From NCBI GenBank assembly GCA_949878745.1, contig CATLBH010000007.1:276-64275 (forward strand): a DNA stretch of 64,000 nt, read 5' to 3'. The DNA is from an uncultured Ruminiclostridium sp. Lineage in GTDB: Bacteria > Bacillota > Clostridia > Oscillospirales > Ruminococcaceae. The notes under the pieces are model-generated. The model saw nothing but the letters and a program-made list of their open reading frames with translations, made no database searches and was not told where the DNA came from. Shown in pieces: positions 35,392 to 64,000 of the stretch; positions within the stretch are counted from its first letter, which is position 1, and every line of letters begins with the position of its first letter. A program made the position numbers and the translations under genes.

Positions 35392-35494
35392 ATTGTTGTG
35401 GGTTTTGTGGGGAACAATTTGTCGGACAGTGATATTGTACCACAAAATTTGGGTTATTGCAAGAGGAATGTGATTTTTATTTATAATTTAATAT

Positions 35495-35677
35495 GCTGGT
35501 GTAGCTCAGTCGGTAGAGCAGCGCATTCGTAATGCGCAGGTCGCGTGTACTTGATAAGGAGATGCGGCAGCGAACCGCAGGTCTTGCAAAATTTTTACAG
35601 TTCAATGGCGCGGATAGGGTGAACATTTAGTTCCCTATTCCGGAATGGCAGTTCGGTCTGCCGAGAAAATTAAATAT
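35495..35677 (+). repeat. Unit 1: tRNA-Thr(CGT) nt 1-49 plus ~134-nt tail
   Basis: 35495-35543 is identical to the full tRNA; no T-loop or 3' acceptor strand. Confidence 0.9.
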
Positions 35678-35860
35678 GCTGGTGTAGCTCAGTCGGTAGA
35701 GCAGCGCATTCGTAATGCGCAGGTCGGGGGTGCTCGATAAGGAGACGCGGTGGCAGATCGCTAGTCTTGCAAAATTTTTACAGTTCAATGGCGAGAACAT
35801 GGTGAAAATTTAGTCCCCCTATTCCGGAATGGCAGTTCAGTCTGCCGAAAAATTAAATAT
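35678..35860 (+). repeat. Unit 2: tRNA-Thr(CGT) nt 1-54 plus a homologous tail
   Basis: 35678-35731 is identical to the full tRNA; tail aligns with unit 1; period 183 bp. Confidence 0.9.
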
Positions 35861-35936
35861 GCTGGTGTAGCTCAGTCGGTAGAGCAGCGCATTCGTAATG
35901 CGCAGGTCGGGGGTTCGAGTCCGTTCACCAGCTCCA
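35861..35936 (+). tRNA. tRNA-Thr(CGT)
   Basis: GCTGGTG/CACCAGC acceptor, D-arm GCTC/GAGC, GCGCA-TTCGTAA-TGCGC anticodon arm, TTCGAGT T-loop, encoded CCA; T-stem imperfect. Confidence 0.93.
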
Positions 35937-39970: not shown

Positions 39971-39981
39971 GAGAGATTATT

Positions 39982-47100: not shown

Positions 47101-47459
47101 TAATATCTGCAGTACGGCTTAACTTCCCGAATATGGCTAATAATCCAGATGCGGCGGCCATCGGTTCATTAACTTCAGACCAGCTTGACTCAGTGAAGAA
47201 GCTGATAATCGACCGCCTCAATATCATCAAGCCGTCAGCAAGAGCAGATGCAGAGGAAGAAGTAGAGCGCTTCATTGACTGGTGGAAATTGCAAGCGGCG
47301 CAGACGAAACCGCTGCGGTATTACGTTGTCGGAACTGAACGCTATAACAGGTTGATGAATCCGTATGACCAGCCGCACGATGAGAACGAAAAAGCTACAC
47401 TTCGTTCCATGCGTGAGGTCGAGAGTTCGGCGAATATGTTCTATTACACGGAGGATTGA
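44136..47459 (+). CDS. drmA: DISARM helicase DrmA
   Basis: FPTGGGKTEAY, YTLRLLT.QQ, IQDELHLI.GPLG, AVGMDV.RLGLM, QATSRIGR; followed by DUF1998 and PLD genes. Confidence 0.88.
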   Translation: MADRFKYSEVRQKIIDAIRTDLIGPREKEEVLEENPRYAYLVGMLDIQNDDEDYSGAGEQEVDADMAFEDGEDFTAGEDDDNEPTSTTHFQLPSSIGISFYIQSDTESINLDVTWGDYVKSSEKYTGKDEKEHSRAIYTRQPMEETVHVQFKDFTRTKDYQLVCDSNVHVHVSRIPLKGGYSLVTAYVINKRKNPANSAEAIMFQVEIKAYAEDGSAEFIAEHICREILASDEFYFEQRPIMGRGRGCAAVWDTPVDGRTTYVKSAFIPEYEFPGVSAALDGFDRYFFSTFTMSVKSKKAETIGKLNTLAESYEKWINSTLLGNARMNNPDFKDKIGNKVIDRCQDALKRIREGISIIENDDISFEAFCFMNRVIFLQNSIKGYAKKHGTGTDCNFQDFINPKNPDNNFGWRPFQIAFILMNLAGIVDPRHIDREVVDLLYFPTGGGKTEAYLGLMAFVIANRRLRASDVDKYNRDGGVTVMLRYTLRLLTTQQRDRITKMVLAAEMIRRQAYPQFGKEPISIGFWVGGGVTPNKFDEFIEKADNPQAARSARNHVYKQLLTCPFCGKPLKEENFNIDTDKKSIEIFCSDRDCQFYRYKNDRIPIPVYLVDEEIYAKCPTIILSTVDKFARLPWDVNTNALFGRVDRKCSRDGYVAIGAEHGRHNKTASLPASTMVNIRPFLPPELIIQDELHLITGPLGTVYGAYETIIEDMCIHDGIKPKYVVSTATIKNAEAQTRCLYARKNTTQFPPNGFEIGDSFFIREISVDDDPFRKYVGVCAPGQSVKTALLRVYAIILQAAYTYSLQKEYKDVIDPYYSLVGYFNSIRELGGAVRLLQDDIPKRIYRIKNKYGLDKQRYLNHNVEITSRMSSYKIPEKLNQLETTCASKDCLDTAIATNMIAVGMDVDRLGLMVVTGQPKQNSEYIQATSRIGRAFPGLVVTLYNAYRPRDLSHYENFTGYHSQLYRFVEGTTATPFSARARDRVMHALIISAVRLNFPNMANNPDAAAIGSLTSDQLDSVKKLIIDRLNIIKPSARADAEEEVERFIDWWKLQAAQTKPLRYYVVGTERYNRLMNPYDQPHDENEKATLRSMREVESSANMFYYTED

Positions 47460-47460
47460 C

Positions 47461-49209
47461 ATGGCTTTTGATAATAATAAACTTGGAGAGTTACGTCCAA
47501 ACCAGATCATAACCACCTTTGGTCCCGGCTCGGTAGTCGATGCGGTAAAGGACTCGGTTACGATTCTTGACATCTCCTACTGGAAACAGAAGGGACAAAA
47601 AATAATCGACGGCAGACTTGCATCATATTTAGGTGTCGATTGTTTCTATATGCCCCGGACAAGTTTTTCGGGCGATGTGCCAGTTGTGACCTTTCCGTAC
47701 TGGCACGTATGCTCTAATTTAAAATGCGGAAAGCTGTTTGATGCCAGAAAGTATTTTGATTTAGATAAGTATCTCAAGTATGGCGTCACTTGTCCTGAGT
47801 GTCATCGTCCTGCCTATCCGTCCCGTTTCATCACGATCTGCGAGGACGGTCATATGTCTGACTTCCCTTGGAAGTGGTGGGTGCACAGAGGCGAGTCCGA
47901 TTGCAACGGTACCTTAAAAATGTATTCAACAGGCAACACTTCCACTCTTGCGGATATGTGGGTAGAATGCTCCTGCGGTGCGAAACGCAGTATGAGCGGA
48001 GCAACACAGCGAGATAATTTTGACGGCGTTGCCTGCCCCGGCCATCATCCGTTCAGACCGAATGTGAAAAACCATAAGTGCAACAAGCCCATCATTCCTT
48101 CACAGCGTGGTGCGTCTAATGTTTACTTCGCTGTGAGCCGGAGTGCAATCTCTATTCCGCCGTGGATCAATCCACTGTATAACTTAATCGATGAGCATCT
48201 TCGTGATATCGAGCTTGCAAAGCAACTTATGGGAGATGATGGAATAACCAAAATATATGAAATGTATTTCTCTGCTTATTCGAGGGATGAGTTTGATGAG
48301 GCACTTGAGCGTCGCATGAGCAACATCAAGGAGTTCACTGAAATCAAGCAGATGGAATACAATGCTATTACTCACCACAATGACCCTGCATATGAGTCAA
48401 ACAAGAAGCACTTCAAGGCTGAAGAGGATGCGTTACCCGGATATTTGCAGAAATATTTCAGCCGCATAATCCGAGTGACCAGACTTAGAGAGGTTCGTGT
48501 TCTTCTGGGATTTACAAGAGTCGATGCTCCCGATCCGGATGCAGATGAGCAGCCGAATGTTGTGGCGTTAAGCAAGGGTAAGCAGGAACGCTGGCTACCT
48601 GCGGCGGAAGTAAATGGAGAAGGCATCTTCATAGAGTTTAACAAAGATACGCTTGCGGCGTGGCTCAATTCACCGGCAGTGAAAGGCTTATCAGAAAAGT
48701 ATTCTGACTCCTACAGGGAGTTTTGCGAGTCAAAAGGCTGGACGATTACGGTCGTAAAAAATGCGGTTTATGTTCTTATGCACACCTTTGCTCACTTTAT
48801 GATTAAGCAGATGTCTATGTCATCGGGCTATTCTTCTTCGGCTATTAGAGAAAGAATCTATTTTGGAGATAAAATGGTCGGCATTCTGTTATACACAGGA
48901 AGTTCCGATAAGGAAGGCTCACTTGGTGGTCTGGTTGAACTTGGAAATATCGATCAGATGACGAATCTCATGAGAGACGCTTTCCAAGAGGCTCTTGTTT
49001 GTACGAATGACCCGGAATGCATGAGTAATTTGCCTGCTGGCAAAAACTCAAACGGAGCTGCCTGCCATTCATGCTGCATGATATCTGAAACGGCGTGCGA
49101 GAATGGAAATAGAATGCTTGACCGTGGGCTTGTTGTTCCTATTCCGGGACGCGAGGAATGCTCATATTTTAAGGAATTAGTAGGTGACTTATGCCAGGTG
49201 GAAATCTAA
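47461..49209 (+). CDS. drmB: DISARM DrmB (DUF1998 domain); probable start MAFD at 47461
   Basis: LRPNQIITTFGPGS, PSRF..ICEDGH, MHTFAH, GSLGGLV, C..DP.C...ACHSC....E..C metal motif. Confidence 0.9.
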   Translation: MAFDNNKLGELRPNQIITTFGPGSVVDAVKDSVTILDISYWKQKGQKIIDGRLASYLGVDCFYMPRTSFSGDVPVVTFPYWHVCSNLKCGKLFDARKYFDLDKYLKYGVTCPECHRPAYPSRFITICEDGHMSDFPWKWWVHRGESDCNGTLKMYSTGNTSTLADMWVECSCGAKRSMSGATQRDNFDGVACPGHHPFRPNVKNHKCNKPIIPSQRGASNVYFAVSRSAISIPPWINPLYNLIDEHLRDIELAKQLMGDDGITKIYEMYFSAYSRDEFDEALERRMSNIKEFTEIKQMEYNAITHHNDPAYESNKKHFKAEEDALPGYLQKYFSRIIRVTRLREVRVLLGFTRVDAPDPDADEQPNVVALSKGKQERWLPAAEVNGEGIFIEFNKDTLAAWLNSPAVKGLSEKYSDSYREFCESKGWTITVVKNAVYVLMHTFAHFMIKQMSMSSGYSSSAIRERIYFGDKMVGILLYTGSSDKEGSLGGLVELGNIDQMTNLMRDAFQEALVCTNDPECMSNLPAGKNSNGAACHSCCMISETACENGNRMLDRGLVVPIPGREECSYFKELVGDLCQVEI

Positions 49210-49850
49210 ACAAAGAGATATTCTTGAATACGGTCAAAAGCGATGTGGCAAATGGAACGACTAATGCCGCATCTATGCTAAAGCGAAGCTGCCCGGAATT
49301 ATCCGATGCACATTGTGAGGATATCATAGGAACGGTTCTTGGTGCTATGAATATGTCCGAAGCGGACAAGGTGTCGCTTGTGGTCACAGCACCTCCATCT
49401 TTTTCTATCAATGCGAGAACTACAATGAATGTGGTTCAGTCCATGATAAACGGAGCAGAAAAGAATATCTTGATTACGGGATACTCCTTATCCTCATACT
49501 TTTCAGAATTGGTCGATACAATCGTTCTTAAAAGCCAGCGAGGTGTATTCGTGAAGTTCTTTGTGAATGACATTGATAAGCAGCCAGGATTTGATAAGAT
49601 ACTGCGCTATAAAGGACGATTCCTGAAAATCTATAACTATCACCAGGAAGACGATAAGATGGCCGCGCTTCATGCAAAGGTAATCTCGGTTGATCAGCAA
49701 CAGACGCTAATAACTTCGGCAAACTTATCCTATCATGGGCAGCAAGGAAATATTGAATTTGGTACATTTATAGAATCTTCTAAAATTGCCTATCAAGTTG
49801 ATAATATATTCACAAAACTGCTTTTTGCAAACCTATTTCATGAGGTATAA
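49191..49850 (+). CDS. drmC: DISARM DrmC phospholipase-D-family nuclease
   Basis: HAKVISVD (HKD motif), TSANLS, NIEFG. Confidence 0.85.
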   Translation: MPGGNLNKEIFLNTVKSDVANGTTNAASMLKRSCPELSDAHCEDIIGTVLGAMNMSEADKVSLVVTAPPSFSINARTTMNVVQSMINGAEKNILITGYSLSSYFSELVDTIVLKSQRGVFVKFFVNDIDKQPGFDKILRYKGRFLKIYNYHQEDDKMAALHAKVISVDQQQTLITSANLSYHGQQGNIEFGTFIESSKIAYQVDNIFTKLLFANLFHEV

Positions 49851-49989
49851 TCACATTTATCCCAAATGAGAAATACTGCAAAGGTTAATATCATCATATA
49901 TCCATTTTATTGAATGATTTAAATAATAAGGTATCAGATGCGTACCCCACCTAAAGTACCGAAACGGTAGTCGAGATACAGGAGGATAA

Positions 49990-50787
49990 ATGTCAGACCT
50001 ATTTAATGAAGAAGAAATAACCTTGGACACGCTCAGAGCATACTTCCACGAAAATGACTTCTCTACCCTGCCCGTGAAAGACCCGTCCGAATACACCGAG
50101 AAGCAGCTGAAACTCTATAACAGGGTGCTACGGATCGTGAACGCAGAGTGGAAATCGATCTCGAAGTCATTAGGTCTGACACACCCGCAGGACTGCTACT
50201 CAAAGGATTTCCCTCCCGAACTTATCCGAGACCGTGTTCAGCGAATAATCGCGGATAATGTTGTCAAGCTTTGCAACAATAAAAGAACATTTTGGAAAAT
50301 GCTTTGGCATTTTATTGTTCCGATGTTCTTGAAAAGGAAAAATAGCGATGAAGCGCTACACAATACAACGAACGCGCTTATGCAGACACTGGATATTGAG
50401 GGCTTATCAAAATCCGCGAGGGAGTTTTCGTGTGACGAGGACTTCAACCCGAATAAATCCATAAATTATCCTCGAATGGATCACATCAAAAAATGGAACC
50501 ACACTCGCGCAAAAATGAAAGTCGAATCCTTGGACGAAATATCAGAGCGTTCTCCGAACGGAGAACCGCCGCAGATTCCCGACAAAACAAATATCGAAAC
50601 CGCAGCGGACATACATATCCTTATCAAAAATCTGGTCGACAGCGCCTCCGAACAGGAGCGGGAGATCATCGACTTGCTGTCCGAGGGGTATACCCAAAGC
50701 GAGATCGCTGAACGACTTGGCGTTTCCCAGAGTACGATCTCGCGTAAAATCAAAAAATTCAAGAGTTTCTTATCAGCCGGCGTATGA
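49990..50787 (+). CDS. Protein with a C-terminal sigma70-region-4/LuxR-type HTH, copy 1
   Basis: SEQEREIIDLLSEGYTQSEIAERLGVSQSTISRKIKK; GGAGG RBS. Confidence 0.75.
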   Translation: MSDLFNEEEITLDTLRAYFHENDFSTLPVKDPSEYTEKQLKLYNRVLRIVNAEWKSISKSLGLTHPQDCYSKDFPPELIRDRVQRIIADNVVKLCNNKRTFWKMLWHFIVPMFLKRKNSDEALHNTTNALMQTLDIEGLSKSAREFSCDEDFNPNKSINYPRMDHIKKWNHTRAKMKVESLDEISERSPNGEPPQIPDKTNIETAADIHILIKNLVDSASEQEREIIDLLSEGYTQSEIAERLGVSQSTISRKIKKFKSFLSAGV

Positions 50788-50813
50788 TTTTGCATCGGCT
50801 GATTTCCTGTTTT

Positions 50814-52028
50814 TTACAGCCTGTCGCTCAGGAGAAAATCCGTCAAATGAATGATCTTTACGCCGTTGACATTGCCGCCCGCAAGTTCGTCGAGCGTCAC
50901 TACATACTTCGGGTAGTGATCCTTTATATCCAGAAGATTTCCTATCTCACGATCCGAATCCTCGGGAAGATTGCGGCACACCTGAACATACACCCTCTCA
51001 TCACGCCGTACAGCCACAAAGTCGATCTCCCGTGTGCTGAGCTTTCCGATATACACCTCATACCCTCGTCTCAGCAACTCAAAATAAACTATATTTTCAA
51101 GCATTGAAGCAATTGATTTAGGGTTAAATCCCATTATGCAGTATTTCAGCGACGCGTCGGCGAGGTAGAACTTCTCCTGCGTTTTCAAAACGGACTTTCC
51201 TTGCAGATCATAACGCTGACAGCGGTAGATCACAAACGCCTTTTCCAGCCATTCAAGATAATTGTAAACTGCCTCGACTGAAAGGGAGCGCCCCTCTCCT
51301 TTCAAAAATTTCACGATAGCGTTTGCGGAAAACGACTTTCCGACATTCTCAACAATATATTTTACCACACGATTGAACAGATCAATATTTGTTACATTGT
51401 GTCGTCTGGAAATATCGTTCGTGATTACAGAGGTATAAATTCCCTCTACTATCTGATATGCGGAACGGTCATCAAAATTCCCGAGTGCGACTATCGGGAA
51501 CCCGCCAGTCCGAATATATTCGTTCAGCAGTTCTTTTTCGGAACTCCCGCTTGACTTTTTGAAATCAAGATATTCGGCAAAGGACAGCGTGAACACGGGT
51601 ATCGAAATATATCTTCCGGTCAGATATGTTGAGATCTCGCTTGACATCAGCTTTGAATTTGATCCCGTGACATAAATATCGGTATTCTCGTTTTCGAGCA
51701 GACTGTTTACCGCCTTTTCCCAACCGTCGATCTCCTGAACCTCATCGAGCAAAATATAATACCGGTCTTTGTCGGCCATTTTCTCCTTGATCACATCGTG
51801 CATACCTCTGTCGGTCATATCGTCGTCCACATACTCGGAGGTATACCGTTCAAATATTATGTGATCTTCGGGAATGCCGCTGCTTTTCAGGTCATTGTGC
51901 AGCATTTCTAAAATCGTTGACTTTCCGCAGCGGCGAACGCCCGCCAATATCTTTACTAACGGGATGTCTCTGTACGTTTTCAGCATTTTCATATAATGCG
52001 GTCTGATAATCATATTATCACTCCTCAT
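50814..52028 (-). CDS. AAA_14 ATPase with DUF4143 domain, copy 1
   Basis: GVRRCGKS, LDEVQ, YVTGSN, LTGRY, ENIVY..L, EIDFV..VYVQV. Confidence 0.88.
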   Translation of the reverse strand: MRSDNMIIRPHYMKMLKTYRDIPLVKILAGVRRCGKSTILEMLHNDLKSSGIPEDHIIFERYTSEYVDDDMTDRGMHDVIKEKMADKDRYYILLDEVQEIDGWEKAVNSLLENENTDIYVTGSNSKLMSSEISTYLTGRYISIPVFTLSFAEYLDFKKSSGSSEKELLNEYIRTGGFPIVALGNFDDRSAYQIVEGIYTSVITNDISRRHNVTNIDLFNRVVKYIVENVGKSFSANAIVKFLKGEGRSLSVEAVYNYLEWLEKAFVIYRCQRYDLQGKSVLKTQEKFYLADASLKYCIMGFNPKSIASMLENIVYFELLRRGYEVYIGKLSTREIDFVAVRRDERVYVQVCRNLPEDSDREIGNLLDIKDHYPKYVVTLDELAGGNVNGVKIIHLTDFLLSDRL

Positions 52029-52121
52029 TACATATTATACCCAAAAACTTTTAAAATGTCAATTGTTTTTGCTGAAATTCCCTAAAAACTTATTATAATT
52101 TCAGCTTTTTTAATTTCCCGC

Positions 52122-52185
52122 TTGACTTTTTAAATTAAATGTGATACAATAAAATCAAATCACGATTTACTAAATCTAAATTAGA
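52122..52185 (+). promoter_or_regulatory. sigmaA promoter with downstream palindromic operator
   Basis: TTGACT-17 nt-TACAAT, then aaatcacgattt and atctaaattagat IRs; operator repeated near 56993-57025. Confidence 0.6.
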
Positions 52186-52202
52186 TGTTCAGGAGAGCTG
52201 TT

Positions 52203-53660
52203 ATGTTTATAGGCAGAGAAAGCGAGCTTAACTTTTTAGAGGACAAGTATTCTCAGGCGGGCGGTCAGCTTGTGGTTCTGTACGGCAGACGGCGTGTCGG
52301 AAAAACTGAAACGCTGCGACAGTTTTGCAAGGGCAAACCGCACGTCTTTTTCTCATGCCGTGAGTGTGGTGATATGATGCAGCTTAAAGCGTTTTCCGAA
52401 AAAATGCTGAAAGAGAAAATCCCGGCTGCCGCGTACATTACGGAATTTGCGGATTGGGAAAAGGCGTTTCGTTCGGTATCTGATCTGCCTTACGGAAATC
52501 AAAAGCGTTTGCTTGTGATCGATGAATTCCCGTATATGTGCAGGGGAAATGCCGCTATTCCATCAACGCTGCAAAATCTTTGGGATGAGTTCTTAAAGGA
52601 TGAGAACGTGATGATCATTCTTTGCGGCAGTGCAATGAGCTTCATTGAAAAGGACTTACTTTCAGAGAAAAATCCTCTTTACGGCAGAGCCACGGGAATT
52701 TACAAAATGACCGAAATGGGATTTTATGACGCTATAAAATTCTTTCCGAATTATTCCGATAGAGATAAGGTGCTTGCGTATTCCGTGCTCGGCGGAATAC
52801 CGCATTATTTAAGACAGTTCGACAACAAGCTCTCTCTTGCGGAAAATATTAAAAAAAATATTCTTACAAAGGGCTGTGCGCTATACAGCGAGGTTGAGTT
52901 TCTGCTGCGGCAGGAGCTGCGCGAAACTCCGCTTTATAATTCGGTCATTGAGGCGGTGGCTCTAGGAAACACAAGGTTGAACGACATAAGTATGAAGTCG
53001 CTTATCGAGGATACTTCAAAGACAAGCGTGTATCTGAAAAATCTTATCGAGCTTGGGATCGTGCAGCGTGAGTTTTCCGTGTCCGAAAGCGTTAAGGAAA
53101 AAGCGAACACTAATCGCGGTCTGTACAAACTGACCGATAACTTTTTCCGTTTTTGGTACGCGTTTGTGTTCACGAATTACTCCGAGCTGGAAGCGGGTGA
53201 TGTGGACGGCGTATACAAGTACTCCGTTGAACCAAGTCTGCATGAGTTCGCGGCGGCGGTGTTCGAGGATATTTGCCGTGAGTATGTTCGCGAGCTGCAA
53301 AAAGCGGACGCCTTGCCGTTCCGCTATTCAAAAATCGGTCGCTGGTGGGGCAAGACGACCGTAAGAAATAAGGATTCCGCTCGTCAAGCCGAATCCGAGA
53401 TAGATATTTTAGCAACCTCAAAAGACATGAGCAAATATCTGGTTGGTGAGTGCAAGTTCAAAAATCAACCGTTCAGATACTCTGAGCTTTTGGATACCAA
53501 GGCAAAGCTGATCTCGCAACAGGAGCGCGCGGAGTTTTATTACTATCTCTTCTCCGAATCGGGATTTGACGAGAAAATTGTCGAGGCGGCAAGCTCAGAT
53601 AGCAGAATTACTCTCTGTGATTTAGCGGATATTGTTTCGTGCAAAACTTCTATAAAATAA
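52203..53660 (+). CDS. Archaeal-type ATPase with DUF234 / PD-(D/E)xK C-terminus; probable start MFIG
   Basis: FIGRESEL, YGRRRVGKT, IDEFPY, LCGS, PLYGR, EIDIL..VGECKF. Confidence 0.88.
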   Translation: MFIGRESELNFLEDKYSQAGGQLVVLYGRRRVGKTETLRQFCKGKPHVFFSCRECGDMMQLKAFSEKMLKEKIPAAAYITEFADWEKAFRSVSDLPYGNQKRLLVIDEFPYMCRGNAAIPSTLQNLWDEFLKDENVMIILCGSAMSFIEKDLLSEKNPLYGRATGIYKMTEMGFYDAIKFFPNYSDRDKVLAYSVLGGIPHYLRQFDNKLSLAENIKKNILTKGCALYSEVEFLLRQELRETPLYNSVIEAVALGNTRLNDISMKSLIEDTSKTSVYLKNLIELGIVQREFSVSESVKEKANTNRGLYKLTDNFFRFWYAFVFTNYSELEAGDVDGVYKYSVEPSLHEFAAAVFEDICREYVRELQKADALPFRYSKIGRWWGKTTVRNKDSARQAESEIDILATSKDMSKYLVGECKFKNQPFRYSELLDTKAKLISQQERAEFYYYLFSESGFDEKIVEAASSDSRITLCDLADIVSCKTSIK

Positions 53661-53813
53661 AAGCGAACTTTGTGCAATCCTACAAACTTTAAAAATCCTA
53701 TTTTCGTGTGCATAAAACCATTTCCTTGTGTCGGTAGGTATATAGAGGGCAATCCCGTCGTTATTCGGCGGGATTTTGTTTTTGGAAAATTTATTTGACA
53801 GGAGGACAAGTTA

Positions 53814-54776
53814 TTGAACGAACTAAAAACAGTAAACTGCGAACAGCTGATGACCACACCGCTCAAACCTATTGAATTCTGCGTTGACGGAATGATTTCA
53901 ACAGGACTGTTCATCTTGGCGGGAGCGCCAAAGGTCGGGAAGTCATGGCTGGCACTCGACATGGCTCTTGGTATTGCGAAAGGAGAAAAAGTGCTTGGGC
54001 GGGAAACGAAACAGGGTACGGCACTATACACAATAGCAGATAACATGTCAATTCGAAAATTCATAGAAAAAATGAGTTTGTGGGTAAAAGCTCCAGACGG
54101 TACAAAAATTCCTGTCAACAAAGATACAATAATTGGTCTGGATGATAATAATGATTTTCTGCTTTCCAGAAAGCAAATACTCACATCAAAAATTGCTATA
54201 TTAGAGCAACAAATTGAAAAGCTAAGGAATATGATTTATTATCAATCTCAGCAACCTACTACAGAGACATTGATAGACGCTTTTGATAAAAACTTATCCC
54301 AAATCGCAATTGATGCTAAAGCGGTTACAAATATTCTAAATGAGTTGCTTGAACGCCAGACTGAAGTGCGGAGACAATTGACTGAATTGGTCCAAAACAA
54401 CAACGCTATTCTTGAACAAATGTATTTGGACATTTCCTCATATGGTGCCGAACTTGGTTTAACGAAATATATGTCTTCTGGAAAAGGATTCGTATTTACA
54501 CGAAATCTGAAAGAATTAACAGGTGCAACTCTAATGAAGATGGTTTTTGCATTTAAAATGGCATATATTCGTGCTGTAGATAGAGCGCTCAACATAAAAC
54601 TCCCTTTAATACTTGATTCTCCATCAGGAAAGGAACTTGATCAATATAATATTCAAAAACTTATGGATATTATTAATCGTGATTTCTCAACACATCAAAT
54701 TATTGTTGCTTCAATTTACTACTATAAGTTAAACAATCTTACAACAATAGAGATGAAGCAACGCGTTGTATTATAA
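53814..54776 (+). pseudogene. Chimera: AAA_25 N-terminus fused in frame to the C-terminus of an SMC/ABC-type ATPase
   Basis: First ~72 aa match the 57268 ORF (GAPKVGKS); after ~54029 coiled coil then LTGA, PLILDSP, HQIIVAS. Confidence 0.7.
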
Positions 54777-54834
54777 ATAGCTATATAGTGATTGCATATG
54801 CAAATATATTTCAAATTGCTTGATAGGAGGACAA

Positions 54835-55632
54835 ATGTCAGACCTATTTAATGAAGAAGAAATAACCATGGACAACCTCAGGGAATACTTCCACAACAAC
54901 GACTTCTCTACCCTGCCTGTGAAAGACCCGTCCGAATACACCGAGAAGCAGCTTAAGCTCTACAGCAGAGTGTTGAAAATTGTCAATGCGGAGTGGAGAA
55001 CGATCTCGAAATCGCTTGGTCTGACACACCCGCAGGACTGCTACTCAAAAGACTATCCTCCTGAGCTTATCAGAGATCGGACTCAGCGTATCATTGCGGA
55101 TAATGTTGTTAAACTCTGCGGCGATAAAAGAACTTTTTGGAATATGCTTTGGCACTTTATCGTCCCGATGTTCTTGAAAAGGAAAAATGGCGATGAAGCG
55201 CTACACAATACAACGAACGCGCTTATGCAGACACTGGATATTGAGGGATTATCGAAAACCTCAAAAGAGTTCTCATGTGACGAGGACTTCAACCCGAATA
55301 AATCCGTAAATTATCCTCGTATGGATCATATCAAAAAATGGAAGCACACTCGCGCAAAAGTGAAAGTCGAATCATTGGATGAACTGTCGGAGCATTCTCC
55401 GAACGGAGAACCGCTGCAGATTCCCGACAAAACAAATGTCGAAACCACGGCGGACATACATATCCTTATCGAAAATCTGATCGACAGCACCTCCGAACAG
55501 GAGCGCGAGATCATCAGCCTACTGTCCGAGGGGTACAACCAAAACGAGATCGCGAAGCGGCTCGGCATTTCCCAAAGCACGGTCTCGCGCAAGGTCAAAA
55601 AATTTAAAAGCTTCTTATCAGCCGGCGTATGA
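54835..55632 (+). CDS. sigma70-r4-like HTH protein, copy 2
   Basis: Near-identical to 49990-50787. Confidence 0.75.
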   Translation: MSDLFNEEEITMDNLREYFHNNDFSTLPVKDPSEYTEKQLKLYSRVLKIVNAEWRTISKSLGLTHPQDCYSKDYPPELIRDRTQRIIADNVVKLCGDKRTFWNMLWHFIVPMFLKRKNGDEALHNTTNALMQTLDIEGLSKTSKEFSCDEDFNPNKSVNYPRMDHIKKWKHTRAKVKVESLDELSEHSPNGEPLQIPDKTNVETTADIHILIENLIDSTSEQEREIISLLSEGYNQNEIAKRLGISQSTVSRKVKKFKSFLSAGV

Positions 55633-55659
55633 CTTCTCGTCGGCTGATGTCCTGTTTTT

Positions 55660-56874
55660 TTACAGCTTGTCGCTCAGGAGAAAATCCGACAAATGCACGA
55701 TCTTTACGCCGTTGACATTGCCGCCCGCAAGCTCGTCCAGCGTTACCACATACTTCGGGTAGTGATCTTTTATATCCAAAAGATTTTCTATCTCACGATC
55801 CGAATCCTCGGGAAGATTGCGGCATACCTGAACATACACCCGCTCATCGCGCCGCACTGCAACGAAATCGATCTCCCGTGTATTGTGCTTTCCGATATAC
55901 ACCTCATATCCCCGCCTAAGCAGCTCGAAATAAACTATATTCTCCAGCATTGAAGCAATTGACTTTGGGTTAAATCCCATTATACAGTATTTCAGCGACG
56001 CGTCGGCGAGATAGAATTTTTCCTGCGTTTTCAAAACCGACTTTCCTTGCAGATCATAACGCTGACAGCGGTAGATCACAAACGCCTTTTCCAGCCATTC
56101 AAGATAATTGTAAACTGCCTCGACCGAAAGTGAGCGTCCCTCACCTTTCAAAAATTTCACGATAGCGTTTGCGGAAAACGACTTTCCGACATTCTCAACA
56201 ATATATTTTACCACACGATTGAACAGATCAATATTTGTTACATTGTGCCGCCTGGAAATATCGTTTGTGATTACGGAGGTATAAATTCCCTCTACTATCT
56301 GATATGCGGAACGGTCGTCGAAATTTCCGAGCGCGACTATCGGGAACCCGCCCGTCCGAATATATTCGTTCAGAAGTTCTTTTTCGGAACCCCCGCTTGA
56401 CTTTTTGAAATCAAGATATTCGGCGAACGACAGTGTGAACACGGGTATAGAAATATATCTTCCGGTCAGATATGTTGAGATCTCGCTTGACATCAGCTTT
56501 GAATTCGATCCTGTGACATAAATATCGGTATTCTCATTTTCAAGCAGACTGTTTACCGCCTTTTCCCAGCCGTCGATTTCCTGAACCTCATCAAGCAAAA
56601 TATAATACCGATCTCCGTCGGTCATTTTCTCCCTGATGGCATCGTGCATACCTCTGTCGGTAATATCCTCGTCTATATACTCGGAGGTATACCGTTCAAA
56701 TATTATGTGATCATCGGGAACACCATCTTTTTTCAAGTCGTCGCGCAGCATATCTAAGATCGTTGACTTCCCGCAGCGGCGAACACCCGCCAATATTTTG
56801 ACCAGCGGAACATCTCTGTACGTTTTCAGCATTTTCATATAATGCGGTCGGATAATCATATCATCACTCCTCAT
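55660..56874 (-). CDS. AAA_14/DUF4143 ATPase, copy 2
   Basis: Near-identical to 50814-52028. Confidence 0.88.
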   Translation of the reverse strand: MRSDDMIIRPHYMKMLKTYRDVPLVKILAGVRRCGKSTILDMLRDDLKKDGVPDDHIIFERYTSEYIDEDITDRGMHDAIREKMTDGDRYYILLDEVQEIDGWEKAVNSLLENENTDIYVTGSNSKLMSSEISTYLTGRYISIPVFTLSFAEYLDFKKSSGGSEKELLNEYIRTGGFPIVALGNFDDRSAYQIVEGIYTSVITNDISRRHNVTNIDLFNRVVKYIVENVGKSFSANAIVKFLKGEGRSLSVEAVYNYLEWLEKAFVIYRCQRYDLQGKSVLKTQEKFYLADASLKYCIMGFNPKSIASMLENIVYFELLRRGYEVYIGKHNTREIDFVAVRRDERVYVQVCRNLPEDSDREIENLLDIKDHYPKYVVTLDELAGGNVNGVKIVHLSDFLLSDKL

Positions 56875-57267
56875 TACATATTATAACCAAAAACCTTTAA
56901 ATTGTCAATTGTTTTTGCCGAAATTCCGTAAAAACTTCTCGTCGATTTTACCTTTTTCTTTTCGACTGAATTTCCCGAGTAAATATGATAATATCAAATC
57001 ACGATTTACTAAATCTAAATTAGATATCGAGCAAGGCGGATTATGAACATAGATCGTAAATTTAGAGAGAAACTATGAGTAAATATAAATATATGCAAAA
57101 TTCCTATAATCGCATAACGAATTTTGTGCAATCCTACAAAATTTAAAAATCCTATTTTCGTGTGCATAAAATCTTTTTCTCGTGTCGGTAAGGTTATAGA
57201 GGGCAATCCCGTCGGTCATCGGCGGGATTTTGTTTTCGGAAAATTTATTTGACAGGGGGATAAGTTA

Positions 57268-57705
57268 TTGAACGAACTCAAAACAGTAAACTGCGAACAG
57301 CTGATGACCACACCGCTCAAACCGATTGAATTTTGTGTTGACGGTATGCTCTCAACTGGGCTTTTCATTCTGGCGGGAGCGCCAAAGGTTGGGAAGTCGT
57401 GGCTCGCGCTGGACATGGCACTCGGTATTGCGAAAGGAGAAAAGGTTCTCGGACGGCAAACCAAACGCGGAACCGCTCTCTATCTCTGTTTAGAGGACAG
57501 CTACACAAGAATTCAAAAACGCTTGTTTGATCTGACAAGCGAGCCGAGTGAAAATCTGCACTTTGCTATCATGGCTGGAACGCTCGGAGGCGTTCTGGAA
57601 AAGCAGATCGAAACATTCAGGTCACAGCACACAGACCTTAAAATTATTATCGTCGATACTTTGCAGAAAATCCGTTCAGGCGACGATACAACCACTTTGC
57701 CATAG
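57268..57705 (+). pseudogene. Truncated AAA_25 (RepA-like helicase/ATPase) fragment
   Basis: GAPKVGKS, LYLCLED, IIVDTLQKIR; ends shortly after Walker B at the junction with hsdR sequence. Confidence 0.75.
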
Positions 57706-60494
57706 CCGAAGAGGTAACGGTTATTATGACGCAGGAAAAGCGCCCGGATATCGTTATTTACCTGAACGGTATCGCTGTGGCAGTTATTGAACTGAAAAAG
57801 AGCAGTGTTTCTGTCTCTGCCGGAATCCGTCAGAATCTCACCAACCAGAAGGATGGCTTTATTCAGCCGTTTTTCTCCACGGTGCAGTTCTGCATGGCGG
57901 GCAACGAAACCGAAGGTCTGCGCTACGGCACTCTACTGACAAAGGAAAAGTTCTATCTGGAATGGAAAACCGACGGGTTCCACGACCATGAGGACGAGCG
58001 TTGTGATACAGACATCCGCATTGATGAGGAATGCACCAAGTTCGGCAACAAGCTCCTGAGCCAGCTTTATTCCATGTTTGATAAAGAGCGCTTTATCGAC
58101 CTGATTGAGAACTTCATCGTCTTTGACAAAGGTATCAAAAAGGTCTGCCGTTATAACCAGTACTATGGCATCAAGCGTGCGCAGATGCGGCTTGCAAAGG
58201 ATAAGAGCGGCATCATCTGGCATACACAGGGCAGCGGCAAAACTCTGACTATGGTATGGCTTTCCAAGTGGCTGCTGGCTCACGGCTATGGCGAAAATCC
58301 CCGTGTGCTGATCGTTACCGACCGTGACGAGTTGGACGAGCAAATAGAAAAGACCTTCAAAGGCGTTGATGAGAACATCGCCAGAACGACCAGCGGTCAG
58401 GACCTGATTGACCGTCTGAATGTGTATGACGACTCCCTGATGTGCTCACTCGTTCATAAATTTGGCAAACGAGGCGGTGAAGCGTCCGAGGCTGATTACG
58501 ATAAATTCATCGAAGAAATCATGAAGAGCTTGCCGGAGGGCTTTGAAGCCAAAGGTAAGCTGTATGTATTCGTTGATGAATGCCACAGAACACAATCCGG
58601 TAAACTGCACGGTGCAATGAAAGCAATTATGCCGAAAGCTACCTTTGTTGGCTTTACTGGTACGCCGCTTTTGAAGAAGGATAAGAAAACCAGCATTGAG
58701 GTGTTTGGTCCTTATATCCACGCTTATAAGTATGACGAAGCTGTCCGGGACGGTGTTGTTCTTGACCTTCGCTATGAATACCGGGATATTCCGCAGGATC
58801 TTTCTTCTCAGGACAAGGTCGATTTGTGGTTTGATACCAAGACCAGAGGGCTGTCGCCTCGTGCAAAGGCCAAGCTCAAAGAGAAATGGGCTACCATGCA
58901 AAAAGTTTACAGCTCCCGCTCCCGTCTGGAGAAAATTGCCTGGGATATTATCGAGGACTTTGATCTGAAGCCTCGCCTTATGGACGGTAATGGAAATGGC
59001 ATTCTCGTTGCTGACTCCATTTATTCCGCATGCAAGTATTATGAGATTTTCCAGAGCAAGGGATTCAAGAAATGCGCTATCATCTCTTCCTACACGCCTA
59101 GCGTGGGTGATTTGCGTACCGATACCGTCAGCGATGAAGATGATACTGAAACCTTTGAAAAATATGAGATTTATCTGAAAATGCTAGGACTTGACCCGGA
59201 TAATCTCCCAGAAAAAATCTCTATCCAAAAGCGAGTCGCGGACTTTGAGGAAGAAGCAAAACGCAAATTTGTTGATGAACCCGCAAACATGAAGCTGCTT
59301 ATTGTTGTCGATAAGCTCTTGACCGGATTTGATGCACCTCCTTGCACCTATCTTTATATCGATAAGAGCATGCAGGACCATGGTTTGTTCCAAGCCATAT
59401 GCCGTGTTAACCGTTTGGACAACGACAGCGACAATAAGGACTTCGGGTTTATTGTTGACTACAAGCAACTCTTTGGTGATTTGAAGTTTGCTATGGATAC
59501 TTATACTTCCGGTGCCTTTTCTGGTTACGATGAAGAAGATGTTGCCGGTCTCATTAAAGATCGCAGTAAGGATTCTATTGCCTACTTCAAAGAAACGTAT
59601 GACGAATTGGAAGAATTGTGTGAAGGTGTAGAGGATCCGCGTGAAGACCTTCAATATCTGCATTACTTCTGCGGAGAATCCAGGGCTGACGAGGAAACAC
59701 AAGAAATCTATGCCCGTATGCGTGAAAAGCTCTACCGTCTTGTTAGTAGACTGGTCCGTGCATTTGCAGAAGCAAAACCATATCTTACCGAAGGCTGTAC
59801 TTCTGCGGAAATCAGCGCCTACGAGGATAAGGTGCATTTCTATATCGAACTAAAGCAGGCCATCGGGAATGATAGTGGAGATTTTCTTGATTTCAAGGCA
59901 TATGAACCGGATATGCGCAAACTCATCGACAACTACATATCTGCATCTGAGAGCATAAAAATCGGTGACTTTGATAATCTGACCCTGCTTGACTTTGTTA
60001 AGAACAAAGGCGAAACTCTCGAAAGAGATAATGATACACCGAAGAGTGCCAAGGATGGTGCGGCTGAAGCAATTGAAAATAACATCCGTCGTAAGGTAGT
60101 CGAGAAGGTAACGGTAAATCCGAAATACTATGAAAAGATGTCTGCTATTCTTGACAAACTCATCGAGCAAAGGCAACAAGGCGTTATTGAATACAAAGAG
60201 TTGTTGGCACACTATATTAAGCTCGCTAAAGATGTGGAGCATCCGGAAGAGAATGAAACCTACCCGAAGAGCATTCGTGGCAGTAAGGCACTTCAGGCAC
60301 TATACGACAATGCTTATGAAGATGAGGTACTCGCTATCAAAATTCATAAAGCTGTTCTCAAGAGCAAGTTGAACGGATTCAGAGGCGACTCTGTAAAAGA
60401 GAATAAAATCAAGCGTGAGCTTTTCCGCGTTCTAAAGGATGATACGGAAGTTGAGCGCATTTATAAAATAATTGAAAAGCAGGGGGAGTATTGA
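57690..60494 (+). pseudogene. hsdR: Type I restriction subunit HsdR, 5'-truncated, no hsdM/hsdS
   Basis: NHFAIAEEVTV upstream of the called ATG; RPDIV..NGIAVAVIELK, HTQGSGKT, VDECHR, GFTGTP, KLLTGFDAP, QAICRVNR. Confidence 0.85.
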
Positions 60495-61927
60495 TGCAAA
60501 TAGTTATATCTGGTATCCCGATTGATATTCAAAAAAAGAATATCAAGAATATGCATTTGTACGTCAAGCCCCCGGATGGGCACGTTATTATCTCGGCGCC
60601 TGTGACTATGGATGACAAGGCAATTGAGGTATATGCCCGTACAAATCTCAGCTGGGTAAAAAAACAGATTAAAAGATTTCAAGAGCAGCCGCGCAGCAGC
60701 AAAAGACAGTATGTTTCCGGTGAAACGCTTTATGTCTGGGGAAAGCAGTATTTTATAAAGTTTGTTCCAGACAACAAAAAGAACAGTTTTACCCTGCAGG
60801 GAGATCAGGCCATCCTTTCCATGAGCGCAGAAAGCACAGTAAAGCAGCGAGAGAATTTTATGCGCGAGCAGTTCCGCACTGTGCTCAAGCAGGAAATCGA
60901 GCATCGGCTGCCAAAGTGGGAACATATTACAGATCTGCACTGTGAAGAATGGCAAACAAAATACATGGTTACCCGCTGGGGAACATGCAACACCGAAAAG
61001 AAAAAGCTGTGGTTTAACCTGCAACTTGCGCAGAAGCCAATCGAATGCTTGGATTTTGTTAGTTCAATACGCTTTGGTAATTGGTTTAGTGTTGCAAGAA
61101 AATTTGTTCCAGAAACTTCAGTGTTTGAATTGACCATTCCATATAGGAGCGATGACGATAATCTTAAATTGCTCTGGGAGCGGGTCAGAAACATGGATGA
61201 TACCATCCTGGAACTGATTGCCCGGCAGGGGTATTCCATCACGCTAGATGCGTCCATTTTCGACAATGCAGAGGACGATGAAATTATTCTATGCTTGAAT
61301 TATGATGGGCTGTACGGCATAAACAACATCAATCGTTTCCTTCAAGAAAGCAATCCCAATGACGCAGTTAAATGGGGAATCCAACAGTACAAAATCGGTG
61401 ACCCGATTTTATTCAATGAATCTGACAGATTCGCACCAGTCATTTACAATAATATGAAGGGAAAAATTGTCGGGATAGAAGTTGTTAATCCTGATAATGT
61501 TGCCGGTTACATTCAGTTTGATATAGAACTCACCAAAGTCATAAACGGTATGGATGCTTTGATGCAAGATTTTGAATTATTGGAAAATTCGCAGCGCGGA
61601 AATTCCGTAATTCGCTTCAAAGTATACAAAACAAGAAACACAGATGAAGATGACGAAAGAAGCTCAAGAGCCATTGTGCCGTTCCAAGTAGCATATGCGG
61701 TATCAATCCACAAAGCACAAGGACTGGAGTTTCGGTCTGTCAAAATTGTCATTACTGACGAGGTGGATGAGCTTATTACACATAATATTTTCTACACGGC
61801 GATAACAAGGGCTCAGAGCAGACTAAGAATTTATTGGACGCCGGAAGTGGAAAATAAAGTTCTCACGCGAATCAAGCCGAGAAGCATAAACAAAGATGTT
61901 GGTTTGCTAAGGCAGTACATTCGATAA
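60491..61927 (+). pseudogene. Chimera: M48/YgjP (DUF45) N-terminus fused in frame to a RecD/UvrD-like helicase C-terminus
   Basis: IKNMHL.V.PP, TRWGTCN, PIECLD, then no HExxH; C-terminal half has YAVSIHKAQGLEF and YTAITRA. Confidence 0.72.
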
Positions 61928-62038
61928 CACGAGAGATAGCTTATGCCAAGAAATACAACAATACGGTTGTTCCTTGTGGTGTCAGATGCGTACCACCATC
62001 TAAAGTACCAAAACGGTAGTCGAGATACAGGAGGACAA

Positions 62039-62836
62039 ATGTCAGACCTATTTAATGAAGAAGAAATAACCATGGACAAGCTCAGAGATTACTTCAAAAA
62101 CAATGACTTCTCTACCCTGCCCATAAAAGACCCATCCGAATATAATGAGAAAGAGCTTAAGCTCTACAGCAGGGTGCTGAAACTTGTAAACGCAGAGTGG
62201 AAAACCATAGCCAAATCATTAGGATTAACGCACCCGCAGGACTGCTACTCAAAAGACTATCCTCCTGAACTTATCAGAGATCGGGCTCAGCGTATCATTG
62301 CGGATAATGTTGTTAGACTCTGCAGCAATAAAAGAACGTTTTGGAATATGCTTTGGCACTTTATCGTCCCGATGTTCCTGAAAAGGAAAAATAGCGATGA
62401 AGCGCTACACAATACTACGAACGCGCTTATGCAGACATTGGACATTGAGGGCTTATCGAAATCTGCGAAAGAGTTTTCGTGTGACGAGGACTTCAATCCG
62501 AATAAATCCATAAATTATCCTCGTATGGATCATATCAAAAAATGGAAGCATACCCGCGCAAAAGTGAAGGTCGAATCATTGGATGAAATATCAGTGCGTT
62601 CTCCGAATGGCGAACCGCCGCAGATTCCCGACAAAACAAATGTCGAAACTGCGGCGGACATACATATTCTTATCGAAAATTTGATCAACAGCGCCACCGA
62701 ACAGGAGCGCGAGATCATCAGCCTACTGTCCGAGGGGTACAACCAAACCGAAATAGCAAAGCGGCTTGGCATTTCCCAAAGCACGGTCTCGCGCAAGGTC
62801 AAAAAATTCAAAAGCTTCTTATCAGCCGGCGTATGA
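62039..62836 (+). CDS. sigma70-r4-like HTH protein, copy 3
   Basis: Near-identical to copies 1 and 2; MSDLF start after GGAGG. Confidence 0.75.
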   Translation: MSDLFNEEEITMDKLRDYFKNNDFSTLPIKDPSEYNEKELKLYSRVLKLVNAEWKTIAKSLGLTHPQDCYSKDYPPELIRDRAQRIIADNVVRLCSNKRTFWNMLWHFIVPMFLKRKNSDEALHNTTNALMQTLDIEGLSKSAKEFSCDEDFNPNKSINYPRMDHIKKWKHTRAKVKVESLDEISVRSPNGEPPQIPDKTNVETAADIHILIENLINSATEQEREIISLLSEGYNQTEIAKRLGISQSTVSRKVKKFKSFLSAGV

Positions 62837-62862
62837 CTTCTCGTCGGCTGATTTCCTGTTTT

Positions 62863-64000
62863 TTACAGCCTATCGCTCAAGAGAAAGTCCGACAAATGCA
62901 CGAGCCTTACGCCGTTGACATTGCCACCCGCAAGCTCATCGAGTGTCACCACATACTTCGGGTAATGGTCTTTTATATCAAGAAGATTTCCTATTTCACG
63001 ATCCGAGTCCTCGGGAAGATTGCGGCACACCTGAACATACACACGCTCATCGCGCCGCACCGCAACGAAATCGATCTCCCGTGTGTTGAGCTTTCCAATA
63101 TATACCTCATACCCTCACCTCAGCAGCTCAAAATAAACTATATTCTCAAGCATTGAAGCAATTGACTTTGGGTTAAATCCCATTATGCAATATTTCAGCG
63201 ACGCGTCCGCGAGGTAGAACTTCTCCTGCGTTTTCAAAACGGACTTTCCTTGCAGATCATAACGCTGACAGCGGTAAATCACAAAAGCCTTTTCCAGCCA
63301 TTCAAGATAATTGTAAACCGCCTCGACCGAAAGTGAGCGTCCCTCTCCTTTCAAAAACTTAACGATAGCGTTTGCGGAAAACGACTTCCCGACATTCTCA
63401 ACAATATACTTTACCACACGATTGAACAGATCAATATTTGTTACACTGTGCCGCCTTGAAATATCGTTTGTGATTACGGAAGTATAAATTCCCTCCACTA
63501 TCTGATACGCTGAACGGTCGTCAAAATTTCCGAGCGCGACGATCGGGAACCCGCCCGTCCGAATATATTCGTTCAGAAGTTCTTTTTCGGAACCCCCGCT
63601 TGACTTTTTGAAATCAAGATATTCGGCAAAGGAAAGCGTGAACACGGGTATCGAAATATATCTTCCGGTCAGATATGTTGAGATCTCGCTTGACATCAGC
63701 TTTGAATTCGACCCGGTAACATAAATATCGGTATTCTCGTTTTCGAGCAGACTGTTTACCGCTTTTTCCTAGCCGTCGATCTCCTGAACCTCATCAAGCA
63801 AAATATAATACCTGTCTCCGTCGGTCATTTTCTCCATGATGGCATCGTGCATACCTCTGTCGGTCATGTCCTCGTCTATATACTCGGAGGTATACCGTTC
63901 AAATATTATGTGATCTTCGGGAATGCCGCTGCTTCTCAAATCGTCGCGAAGCATTTCCAAAATCGTCGACTTTCCGCAGCGGCGGACGCCCGCCAATATC
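62863..64000 (-). pseudogene. AAA_14/DUF4143 ATPase copy 3 with two in-frame stops (5' end outside the window)
   Basis: TGG>TAG at 63769-63771 and CGA>TGA at 63115-63117 relative to copy 1. Confidence 0.85.

Follow-up and report, generated by a model that had tools for sequence, protein, structure and literature searches.

Staphylococcal cassette chromosome elements (SCC, including SCCmec) are moved by large serine recombinases (CcrAB or CcrC), carry a helicase-type replication gene upstream of the recombinase gene, stack in tandem at one site and include pseudo-elements that have no recombinase; their target is the 3' end of rlmH (orfX) and not a tRNA gene, and their helicase Cch is from a family other than that found here. 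In streptococci, accretion gathers related ICEs (integrative conjugative elements) and IMEs (integrative mobilisable elements) at one att site, where mobility genes decay, and cis-mobilisable elements (CIMEs) retain both attL and attR and are open to mobilisation in cis. Here we describe a stretch of 64,000 nucleotides (the window; C7:276-64275 of contig C7, CATLBH010000007.1) from the draft genome, in 108 contigs, of an uncultured Ruminiclostridium sp. The region is very probably a fossil stack of three related integrative elements, designated E1, E2 and E3, at a tRNA-Thr(CGT) gene, decayed by deletions.

The family to which these elements belong resembles SCC in its large serine recombinase, in the helicase gene upstream of it, in tandem stacking and in having recombinase-less members, although its recombinase scores under the CcrB family cut-off. 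The stack departs from CIMEs in having lost its inner att sites and every attR. The ssrA islands of Dehalococcoides (DsiB/DsiA; McMurdie et al. 2011, PMC3146451) share a CcrB-like large serine recombinase and a tRNA-like target, as well as tandem islands downstream with 3'-end repeats, a conserved integration module with variable cargo, and decayed or fixed members. They are unlike the present family in their ssrA target, their 20-bp repeat, the position of the integration module beside attL, the extra small recombinase DsiA and a cargo made up mainly of reductive dehalogenases, whereas the present family has a tRNA-Thr(CGT) target, a recombinase at the far end, a backbone of sigma-like and AAA_25 genes, anti-phage cargo and, apparently, a whole replacement tRNA. 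Prochlorococcus tycheposons (Hackl et al., bioRxiv 10.1101/2020.12.28.424599) likewise target tRNA genes and carry cargo and replication genes, and their successive integrations push older elements inward and leave degenerate remnants and partial tRNAs. Tycheposons use mostly tyrosine recombinases (910/937), are found in marine cyanobacteria and have partial tRNAs between elements, whereas the present stack is from a gut Clostridia bacterium and belongs to a serine recombinase, its internal att sites are deleted, and such partial tRNAs as remain are 5' halves that form a stack upstream. Site-specific elements are thus already known to pile up in tandem at a tRNA-like gene and then to decay (PMC3146451; bioRxiv 10.1101/2020.12.28.424599), with SCC composite islands and streptococcal accretion as further examples; a limited literature search found no paper on a sigma/AAA_25/serine-recombinase element family.

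Repeated modules and deletion junctions

Self-BLASTN of the window reveals a block of ~2.2 kb in three direct copies (49930-52186, 54825-57025 and 61978 to the window end) with 89-91% nucleotide identity. Copies 1 and 2 are 89.0% identical over 2209 nt (49980-52186 and 54825-57025), copies 2 and 3 are 91.4% identical (54825-56796 and 62029-63999) and copies 1 and 3 are 89.3% identical (49930-51951 and 61978-64000); copies 1 and 2 have a further block in common (53640-54028 and 57094-57482, 86.1%). Pairwise dS between module copies is 0.33-0.67 with dN/dS of 0.06-0.21, so the repetition is not a matter of chance. A reading made from the letters of the window without database searches (the sequence-only reading) had described three tandem modules that were diverged paralogues and not identical repeats, and these comparisons agree with it on both counts.

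Each copy includes a gene for a helix-turn-helix (HTH) protein convergent with an AAA_14/DUF4143 gene, the latter matching the PADLOC candidate PDC-S01, and in copies 1 and 2 a conserved non-coding leader and the start of an AAA_25 gene (53814 and 57268) come next, again as had been described. The earlier description of the copies needs three amendments: the AAA_14 gene cannot be kept as a conserved part of the module, being missing from the related elements L002 and L008 (related loci and contigs from public assemblies and other samples are referred to by L and G numbers), copy 1 has an additional gene, PDC-S27, at 52185-53660, and the third AAA_14 gene contains two in-frame stops. On the contig, copy 3 extends beyond the window end to window position ~64088, where it breaks off directly behind the AAA_14 start; the contig itself continues for 389 nt after the window. 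The end of C7 (window 64089 to 389 nt past the window) and that of contig C35 have an identical last 127 nt, in which an open reading frame (ORF) starting MTKQITLSMINDELAKAKTSKKEF opens. The repeat at the ends of these two contigs is probably a multi-copy insertion sequence (IS), which would cut into copy 3 a little upstream of the PDC-S01 start and break off the assembly there.

The nearest relative of each copy sits outside the array: L053 for copy 1, L059-L062 for copy 2, and G091 together with L027 for copy 3. Identity between modules is mosaic, as copy 3 matches the G091 element at 99-100% over ~600 nt of the HTH gene and at 73-93% elsewhere, and between copies 1 and 2 identity rises to 97-98% midway along PDC-S01. 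From this mosaic we deduce homologous exchange among the modules.

Intact elements of the family (L001, L010, L022-L024, L031 and L053, all in public assemblies) have the order tRNA-Thr(CGT), cargo, HTH gene, optional second slot, leader, AAA_25, small ORFs, large serine recombinase and, last, a repeat of the final 32 nt of the tRNA. In nine loci including the window, the HTH gene is preceded at a distance of 0.2-14 kb by the tRNA-Thr(CGT) gene, and cargo alone fills the interval. The small ORFs between AAA_25 and the recombinase are o161 or o101, and o83 (one or two), and the AAA_25 protein of the relatives is a helicase of 364-402 aa with DnaB/RepA-like profile matches. Family recombinases have ~540-580 aa; that of L001 contains Resolvase, Recombinase, Zn_ribbon_recom and DUF4368 domains and matches PHROG 95 (integrase) with an E value of 5e-104, and the best NCBIfam match of the family recombinase is CcrB at 144 bits, below its cut-off. 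The intact relatives sought in public assemblies thus supply the integrase, as a large serine recombinase, and the cargo that the sequence-only reading had proposed to retrieve; a relaxase was not found among the genes of those intact relatives that were examined.

Sister elements (L002-L009 and L047) have recombinases that are 36-41% identical, sit at other targets and have no tRNA fragment, from which it follows that integration specificity tracks recombinase type. The type of AAA_25 reassorts independently, the recombinases of L053 and L001 being 97% identical and their AAA_25 proteins 46%. This reassortment of AAA_25 and recombinase types, together with the mosaic identity of the modules, provides indirect support for the earlier proposal that shared modules could support homologous shuffling.

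E1 is intact in L053, L054, L055 and L058, which match the window at 95.5-98.4% and without gaps up to base 54029 (the DISARM operon is 98.4% identical in L053), and past this base run into a full AAA_25 gene, o83, a 543-aa recombinase and attR. From base 54028 on, the window is matched at 95.7% by L059-L062, in which the counterpart of the E2 cargo comprises an intact 476-aa PDC-M46B, an upstream 334-aa partner (M46A) and a type III restriction-modification (RM) system; L060 starts with the 3' part of a tRNA-Thr gene, to the left of the E2-type cargo. The junction between the two, J1, has lost the rest of the E1 AAA_25 gene, o83, the recombinase, attR and the front of the E2 cargo. It is spanned by an independent contig, L026, which includes the start of module 2 and has 1 mismatch in 1252 nt. 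At J2 the loss takes in the rest of the E2 AAA_25 gene, the small ORFs, the recombinase and attR and reaches into the E3 type I RM system, of which hsdM/hsdS and the initial ~130 codons of hsdR are missing, and the same junction is found in four independent contigs (L027-L030, 99.9-100%). L027 corresponds to window 56457-61061 followed by 61059-63263 at 99.98%, so that it shares J2 and is without J3; the undeleted form of the J3 region in L027-L029 encodes an intact YgjP-like protein of 857 aa and a helicase of 903 aa. J3 is private to this genome, and J1 and J2 recur in independent assemblies.

The intact counterparts of the E1 and E2 cargo, the mapped endpoints of two of the three deletions, with their 2-3 nt of microhomology, and the tandem accretion in L001 described below bear out the suggestion that repeated integration at tRNA-Thr was followed by deletions. 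Strains differ in this region: J3 is absent from L027, and intact single E1 and E2-cargo counterparts exist elsewhere.

Because the J1 and J2 deletions cover the expected positions, there are no att copies between the elements. A search of the genome found no tRNA-Thr 3' fragment inside the island or elsewhere, and no recombinase of the element family (the best is 34% identical); with neither a family recombinase nor an attR left, the island can no longer excise. We considered and rejected nested insertion into AAA_25 as an origin of the junctions, as the breakpoints differ (codon 72 and codon 141) and the right sides begin mid-gene in cargos with known intact forms. Two candidates for the right end of the island were likewise rejected, namely an AAA_25 tail with a recombinase on contig C5 (34% identity, no tRNA fragment) and a weak AAA_25-leader match on C10 that is flanked by unrelated genes. 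The region on C5 (C5:79283-82362) is a separate decayed element with an AAA_25 tail (residues 282-399, 83% identical to that of L001), a 193-aa ORF and a 552-aa serine recombinase. Internal deletions with an endpoint in AAA_25 or the recombinase were met repeatedly among the relatives (L031, L037, L048, L051 and L010); in L031 residues 1-188 of AAA_25 are fused to residues 318-582 of the recombinase, and in L051 the HTH gene is fused to AAA_25. Since such deletions recur in relatives, loss of mobility genes is common in the family.

Table 1. Coordinates of the features of the stacked elements in the window (strand "." for junctions)
Feature	Position	Strand	Remarks
Truncated unit 1	35495..35677	+	49-nt tRNA-Thr 5' part joined at GGTC to P'-like half-site GTGTACTTGATAAGGAGAT and 129-nt spacer; host-type upstream flank; read as attL of an older element
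Truncated unit 2	35678..35860	+	54-nt tRNA-Thr 5' part with E1 P'-like half-site and spacer; read as attL from insertion of E1 into the tRNA copy of the previous element
Intact tRNA-Thr(CGT)	35861..35936	+	ARAGORN; putatively borne by E1 and the current landing site (attB); predicted crossover GT 35906-35907
E1 cargo: Dcm-like methyltransferase, DrmD, N6 methyltransferase, type III Res, DrmA, DrmB, DrmC	36076..49850	+	all ORFs intact
Backbone copy 1, HTH gene	49930..50787 (CDS 49990-50787)	+	265 aa; ~60 nt of conserved upstream sequence
PDC-S01 (AAA_14/DUF4143), copy 1	50814..52028	-	intact; PADLOC candidate, E 6e-150
PDC-S27 (ATPase_2/DUF234), copy 1 only	52185..53660	+	intact; PADLOC candidate; between AAA_14 gene and AAA_25 leader
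Leader with terminator-like hairpin and AAA_25 codons 1-72 (from 53814)	53640..54028	+	truncated right end of E1; L053 homology stops at 54029
J1	54028..54029	.	E1 AAA_25 codon 72 to M46B codon ~229; 2-nt microhomology AC
E2 cargo remnant: C-terminal half of PDC-M46B	54029..54776	+	profile positions 229-476 of 483; ABC/SMC-like
Backbone copy 2, HTH gene	54825..55632 (CDS 54835-55632)	+	265 aa
PDC-S01 (AAA_14/DUF4143), copy 2	55660..56874	-	intact; PADLOC candidate
Leader and AAA_25 codons 1-141 (ORF 57268-57705)	57094..57691	+	truncated right end of E2; G091 homology stops at 57691
J2	57691..57692	.	E2 AAA_25 codon 141 to hsdR; left side set by the intact G091 element
E3 cargo: HsdR without N-terminal ~130 residues	57726..60494	+	REase_I profile positions 131-1030 of 1034
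E3 chimeric ORF: YgjP-like peptidase residues 1-190 with PDC-S53 helicase tail	60491..61927	+	J3 inside, 61059-61061
J3	61059-61061	.	3,865 bp lost relative to L027; 3-nt microhomology TTA
Backbone copy 3, HTH gene	61978..62836 (CDS 62039-62836)	+	265 aa
PDC-S01 pseudogene, copy 3	62863..64000, continues past window end	-	two in-frame stops

Integration at the tRNA-Thr gene

In L001, L010, L022, L024, L031 and L053 a conserved arm lies behind the recombinase gene, and the last 32 nt of the tRNA, GGTCGGGGGTTCGAGTCCGTTCACCAGCTCCA, come after this arm. A full tRNA-Thr gene stands at the left end of L001, L022/L023 and L024, and the window keeps the left-hand sites only. In L001 the sequence after attR, a terminator hairpin and two genes, is that found directly after the intact tRNA in G001, which is of the same genus as the window (95-96% aa identity), and a like flank follows the attR of G014:C16. 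Tandem accretion is directly seen in the relatives.

Two truncated tRNA units, each of 183 nt, precede the intact tRNA gene of the window, and similar units are present in L038, L040, G014:C16, L063 and L066. The truncated tRNA copies stop at GGTC(G), exactly at the start of the attR repeat, and it is the outermost truncated copy and not the intact tRNA that carries the host-type flank, which is homologous to the sequence upstream of the intact tRNA in G001 (G001 1099-2044 corresponds to window 34598-35543). The sequence after a truncated copy mirrors the arm on the recombinase side, as can be seen by comparing GTGTACTTGATAAGGAGAT of the window with the reverse complement of the L001 arm, GTGCTGTTGATAAGGAGAT, or the truncated copy of G014, GGACTACCGATAAAGCGACG, with what its own arm yields, GGACTTGTTTTAAAGCGACG. 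Scored against shuffled sequences, cognate pairs of half-site and arm give z values of 3.5-6.7 in two subfamilies, and non-cognate pairs mostly give z <2; the window half-site gives 4.5-6.1 with the arms of L001, L031 and L053. When the arms are joined (P-GT-P'), the reconstructed site of each of the two subfamilies is a quasi-palindrome with arms of 18-20 nt and an 8-nt centre, the middle of which is the GT of GGTC at tRNA positions 46-47. A quasi-palindrome with a central dinucleotide is typical of serine-integrase attP sites. The unit adjoining the DISARM element is 99% identical in L066 despite a different host flank, and the outer units are 81% alike. The same 76-nt tRNA allele is present in every element-bearing locus, and the native alleles of element-free relatives differ from it in the T-arm.

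On these grounds we consider it fairly likely that each element carries P', the spacer and a full tRNA-Thr gene at its left end and inserts into the resident tRNA copy, the 5' part of which is left behind as an attL scar. In this model, a circular element would recombine at tRNA-Thr, with the recombinase crossing over at the GT of GGTC (positions 46-47) and thereby splitting the resident tRNA gene. The 5' part of the resident tRNA and P' would stay upstream as attL, and P with the last 32 nt of the tRNA would come to lie after the recombinase gene as attR. The tRNA borne by the element, with its terminator hairpin, would replace the split gene and become the next landing site, so that newer elements would be nearest the tRNA and older ones would be pushed outward.

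Two further features of the tRNA gene were noted. The element-linked tRNA-Thr(CGT) has a weak T-stem, GGGGG/CCGTT (window 35909-35925), with two G-U pairs and a G-G mismatch. As both halves of the stem are 3' of the proposed crossover, the mismatch would not have arisen by recombination between stem halves. In L023 (G014:C16) and L040, some truncated copies have an insertion of 30-105 nt after GCTCAGTCG(GTAG), in the D-arm, which suggests a second, different recombination site in the same tRNA gene.

Proposed history of the stack and competing explanations

We propose that E3 (type I RM, YgjP-like protein and PDC-S53) would be the oldest of the three elements, that E2 (type III RM and PDC-M46) would have arrived next and that E1 (DISARM with type III RM) would be the newest. 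Decay grows with distance from the tRNA gene and is therefore consistent with stacking in which the newest element is nearest to it. J1 and J2 stripped the elements of their mobility genes, and J3, the nonsense mutations in the third PDC-S01 and the repeat or IS at the contig end represent further decay of E3. The AAA_25 protein probably replicates the excised circle, and the sigma-like protein together with the leader probably controls the replication/recombination operon.

Taking the family as a whole, we lean towards the view that it constitutes a portable tRNA-Thr(CGT) landing pad, that is, a self-renewing and open-ended platform for the stacking of defence systems, with a site-specific DUF4368 recombinase and with arrays of tRNA halves that record its insertions. 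If this is true, the arrays of truncated tRNA halves that many gut and rumen Clostridia have at tRNA-Thr would record insertions in the order in which they happened, and if the att reconstruction is true the recombinase would be a serine integrase specific for a tRNA gene, in a clade known apart from this for multi-targeting. The locus serves as a worked example of how a defence island is built and frozen, by stepwise arrival at a tRNA gene, small deletions and decay from the oldest end, with different immune systems brought by each element (DISARM, type I and III RM and several PADLOC candidates). Intact and decayed versions coexist in public gut metagenomes and provide natural before/after pairs for PDC-S01, S27, M46 and S53. 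The value of the locus lies in this full before/after reconstruction and in a likely explanation of the arrays of tRNA half-copies.

Several observations weigh against the stack as we reconstruct it. There are two truncated units and three modules, and to account for the shortfall either the loss of a unit or the joint arrival of E2 and E3 as a composite has to be assumed. L001, L021 and L035 are without any truncated copy, which requires secondary loss by recombination between tRNA copies, and in L063 the unit adjoining E1 differs from that of the window (83%). Two pattern scans of metagenome contigs found no free attP (P-GT-P'), bar one chance match in an unrelated ORF. DUF4368 recombinases are reported to be mostly multi-targeting (PMC10083194), and for this reason a tRNA-specific clade would be a notable variant. 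The end of C7 is a repeat boundary also found at the end of contig C35, which leaves the right end of the island out of view. Lastly, there is no near-identical independent contig for J3 or for 55061-56457 in module 2.

The alternative that fares best is classical integration at a tRNA 3' end, in which the elements carry only the 32-nt mimic, the intact tRNA belongs to the host and the truncated units to an unrelated small repeat family. This model predicts that the last 32 nt of the tRNA recur as a direct repeat at attR, and it accommodates both the loci without a truncated copy and the divergent unit adjoining E1 in L063. However, it leaves unexplained why the truncated copies stop exactly where the attR repeat starts, why in two subfamilies the cognate arm on the recombinase side is mirrored by the tails of these copies, why the host flank is on the outermost truncated copy and why the DISARM-adjacent unit is 99% identical in another host context. 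We regard it as improbable, and as a less satisfactory account of the left-hand sites than insertion of elements that bring their own tRNA.

An assembly artefact, in which modules from different strains or loci have been joined through the shared repeat, might be suspected in a draft of 108 contigs with a contig end in a repeat and with J3 and 55061-56457 not covered by near-identical independent contigs. The longest exact matches between copies are nevertheless 104, 74 and 86 nt, shorter than the 127-nt overlap of the C7 and C35 ends, and independent contigs of other samples span the joins: L053 and L057 link DISARM to module 1, L026 covers J1 and the start of module 2, and L027 runs from the end of module 2 through J2 and the E3 cargo to module 3. 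Such an artefact is therefore very unlikely.

We give similarly little credence to an active cassette platform in which the module is an integron- or shufflon-like unit for swapping or switching defence cargo. It is true that the three sigma-like genes are intact and under purifying selection despite the wrecked operons next to them, that the mosaic identity records recombination among modules and that 2.2-kb direct repeats could drive loss or capture of cargo. Against this, an integron or shufflon would have a resident recombinase and recombination sites flanking each cassette, and this genome lacks both a cognate recombinase and att sites between modules, the junctions lie at varied intragenic positions with 2-3 nt of microhomology and inactivate the adjacent cargo, and copy 3 is decaying. 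Least credible of all is duplication in situ, with one module duplicated twice in the chromosome and cargo inserted afterwards, which would fit direct copies with the same gene order but not their dS of 0.33-0.67 under purifying selection, nor the closer affinity of each copy to an element of another genome or sample than to its neighbours, nor the intact single elements elsewhere with exactly these cargos.

Defence cargo and backbone genes

Different defence cargo lies ahead of each module copy, as the sequence-only reading had stated, and PADLOC and profile matches identify it as DISARM/type III, the tail of the ABC/SMC-like PDC-M46B, and HsdR with a helicase tail respectively. The DISARM assignment is based on an NCBIfam DrmD_b match of 1500 bits (cut-off 950), PADLOC matches to DrmA (1098 bits), DrmB and DrmC, and the presence of an N6_N4 methyltransferase and Dcm; the operon is accompanied by a type III mod/res pair (36076-49850). 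At J1, the ORF at 53814-54776 encodes residues 1-72 of AAA_25 and, continuing in the same frame, the C-terminal half of PDC-M46B. In this genome PDC-M46, the type I RM system and PDC-S53 are broken, and DISARM with type III RM, two PDC-S01 genes and PDC-S27 are intact. The cargo of the relatives is also mostly defence, including RM systems of types I, II, IIG and III, GmrSD, a Stk2-like kinase, PDC-S50 and Hachiman neighbours.

Opposite-strand genes are sometimes present between the HTH gene and AAA_25 (PDC-S01, PDC-S27, and AAA_21 with DUF8370). In elements of the L002/L008 type, which have no PDC-S01, the HTH stop codon abuts the AAA_25 leader, and we therefore assign the PDC-S01/PDC-S27 block to a second cargo slot and not to the backbone. 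PDC-S27 takes the place of 67 nt of the G091 element and is present in L034 and L053 too; exact-sequence look-ups returned no record for PDC-S27 or for the YgjP/S53 chimera. The stops in the third PDC-S01 are TGG>TAG at aa 103 and CGA>TGA at aa 321, of which at least the downstream one (aa 321) is also present in L027. An alternative genetic code was ruled out as an explanation, the stops TAG and TGA standing for Trp and Arg codons. In L034 (7288-16250) the second slot is enlarged to ~9 kb, with a fragment of a PDC-S01 tail, unknown genes, DUF8370 and AAA_21 as well as a full PDC-S01 and PDC-S27, an arrangement which suggests that cargo builds up between the HTH gene and AAA_25 too.

The HTH gene encodes a predicted sigma-70/ECF-like protein, with a C-terminal HTH of the sigma-70 region 4 type. 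Pfam detects region 4 only, and over residues 128-261 the protein scores 51.9 bits with the NCBIfam sigma-70 model TIGR02937, above the cut-off of 42.9. A weak structure model (pLDDT 63.5) has nothing but sigma factors as its best Foldseek matches, with E values of 0.008 or worse. Homologues are numerous in gut metagenomes and Clostridia metagenome-assembled genomes from mouse, rabbit and other guts.

The leader of AAA_25 (~150 nt; window 53661-53813 and 57110-57267) is better conserved than the adjoining genes and is also found in L001, L002, L008, L031, L032, L035, L047 and L053; it is ~90% identical between elements whose AAA_25 proteins are just 46% identical. No family match was found for it in Rfam. 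Its 3' end forms a terminator-like hairpin, AATCCCGTCG...CGGCGGGATT, followed by a U-run ~30 nt before the AAA_25 ribosome-binding site, and the leader may act as an attenuator of the replication/recombination operon. In the G014 leader the sequence of the hairpin is different and the hairpin itself is retained.

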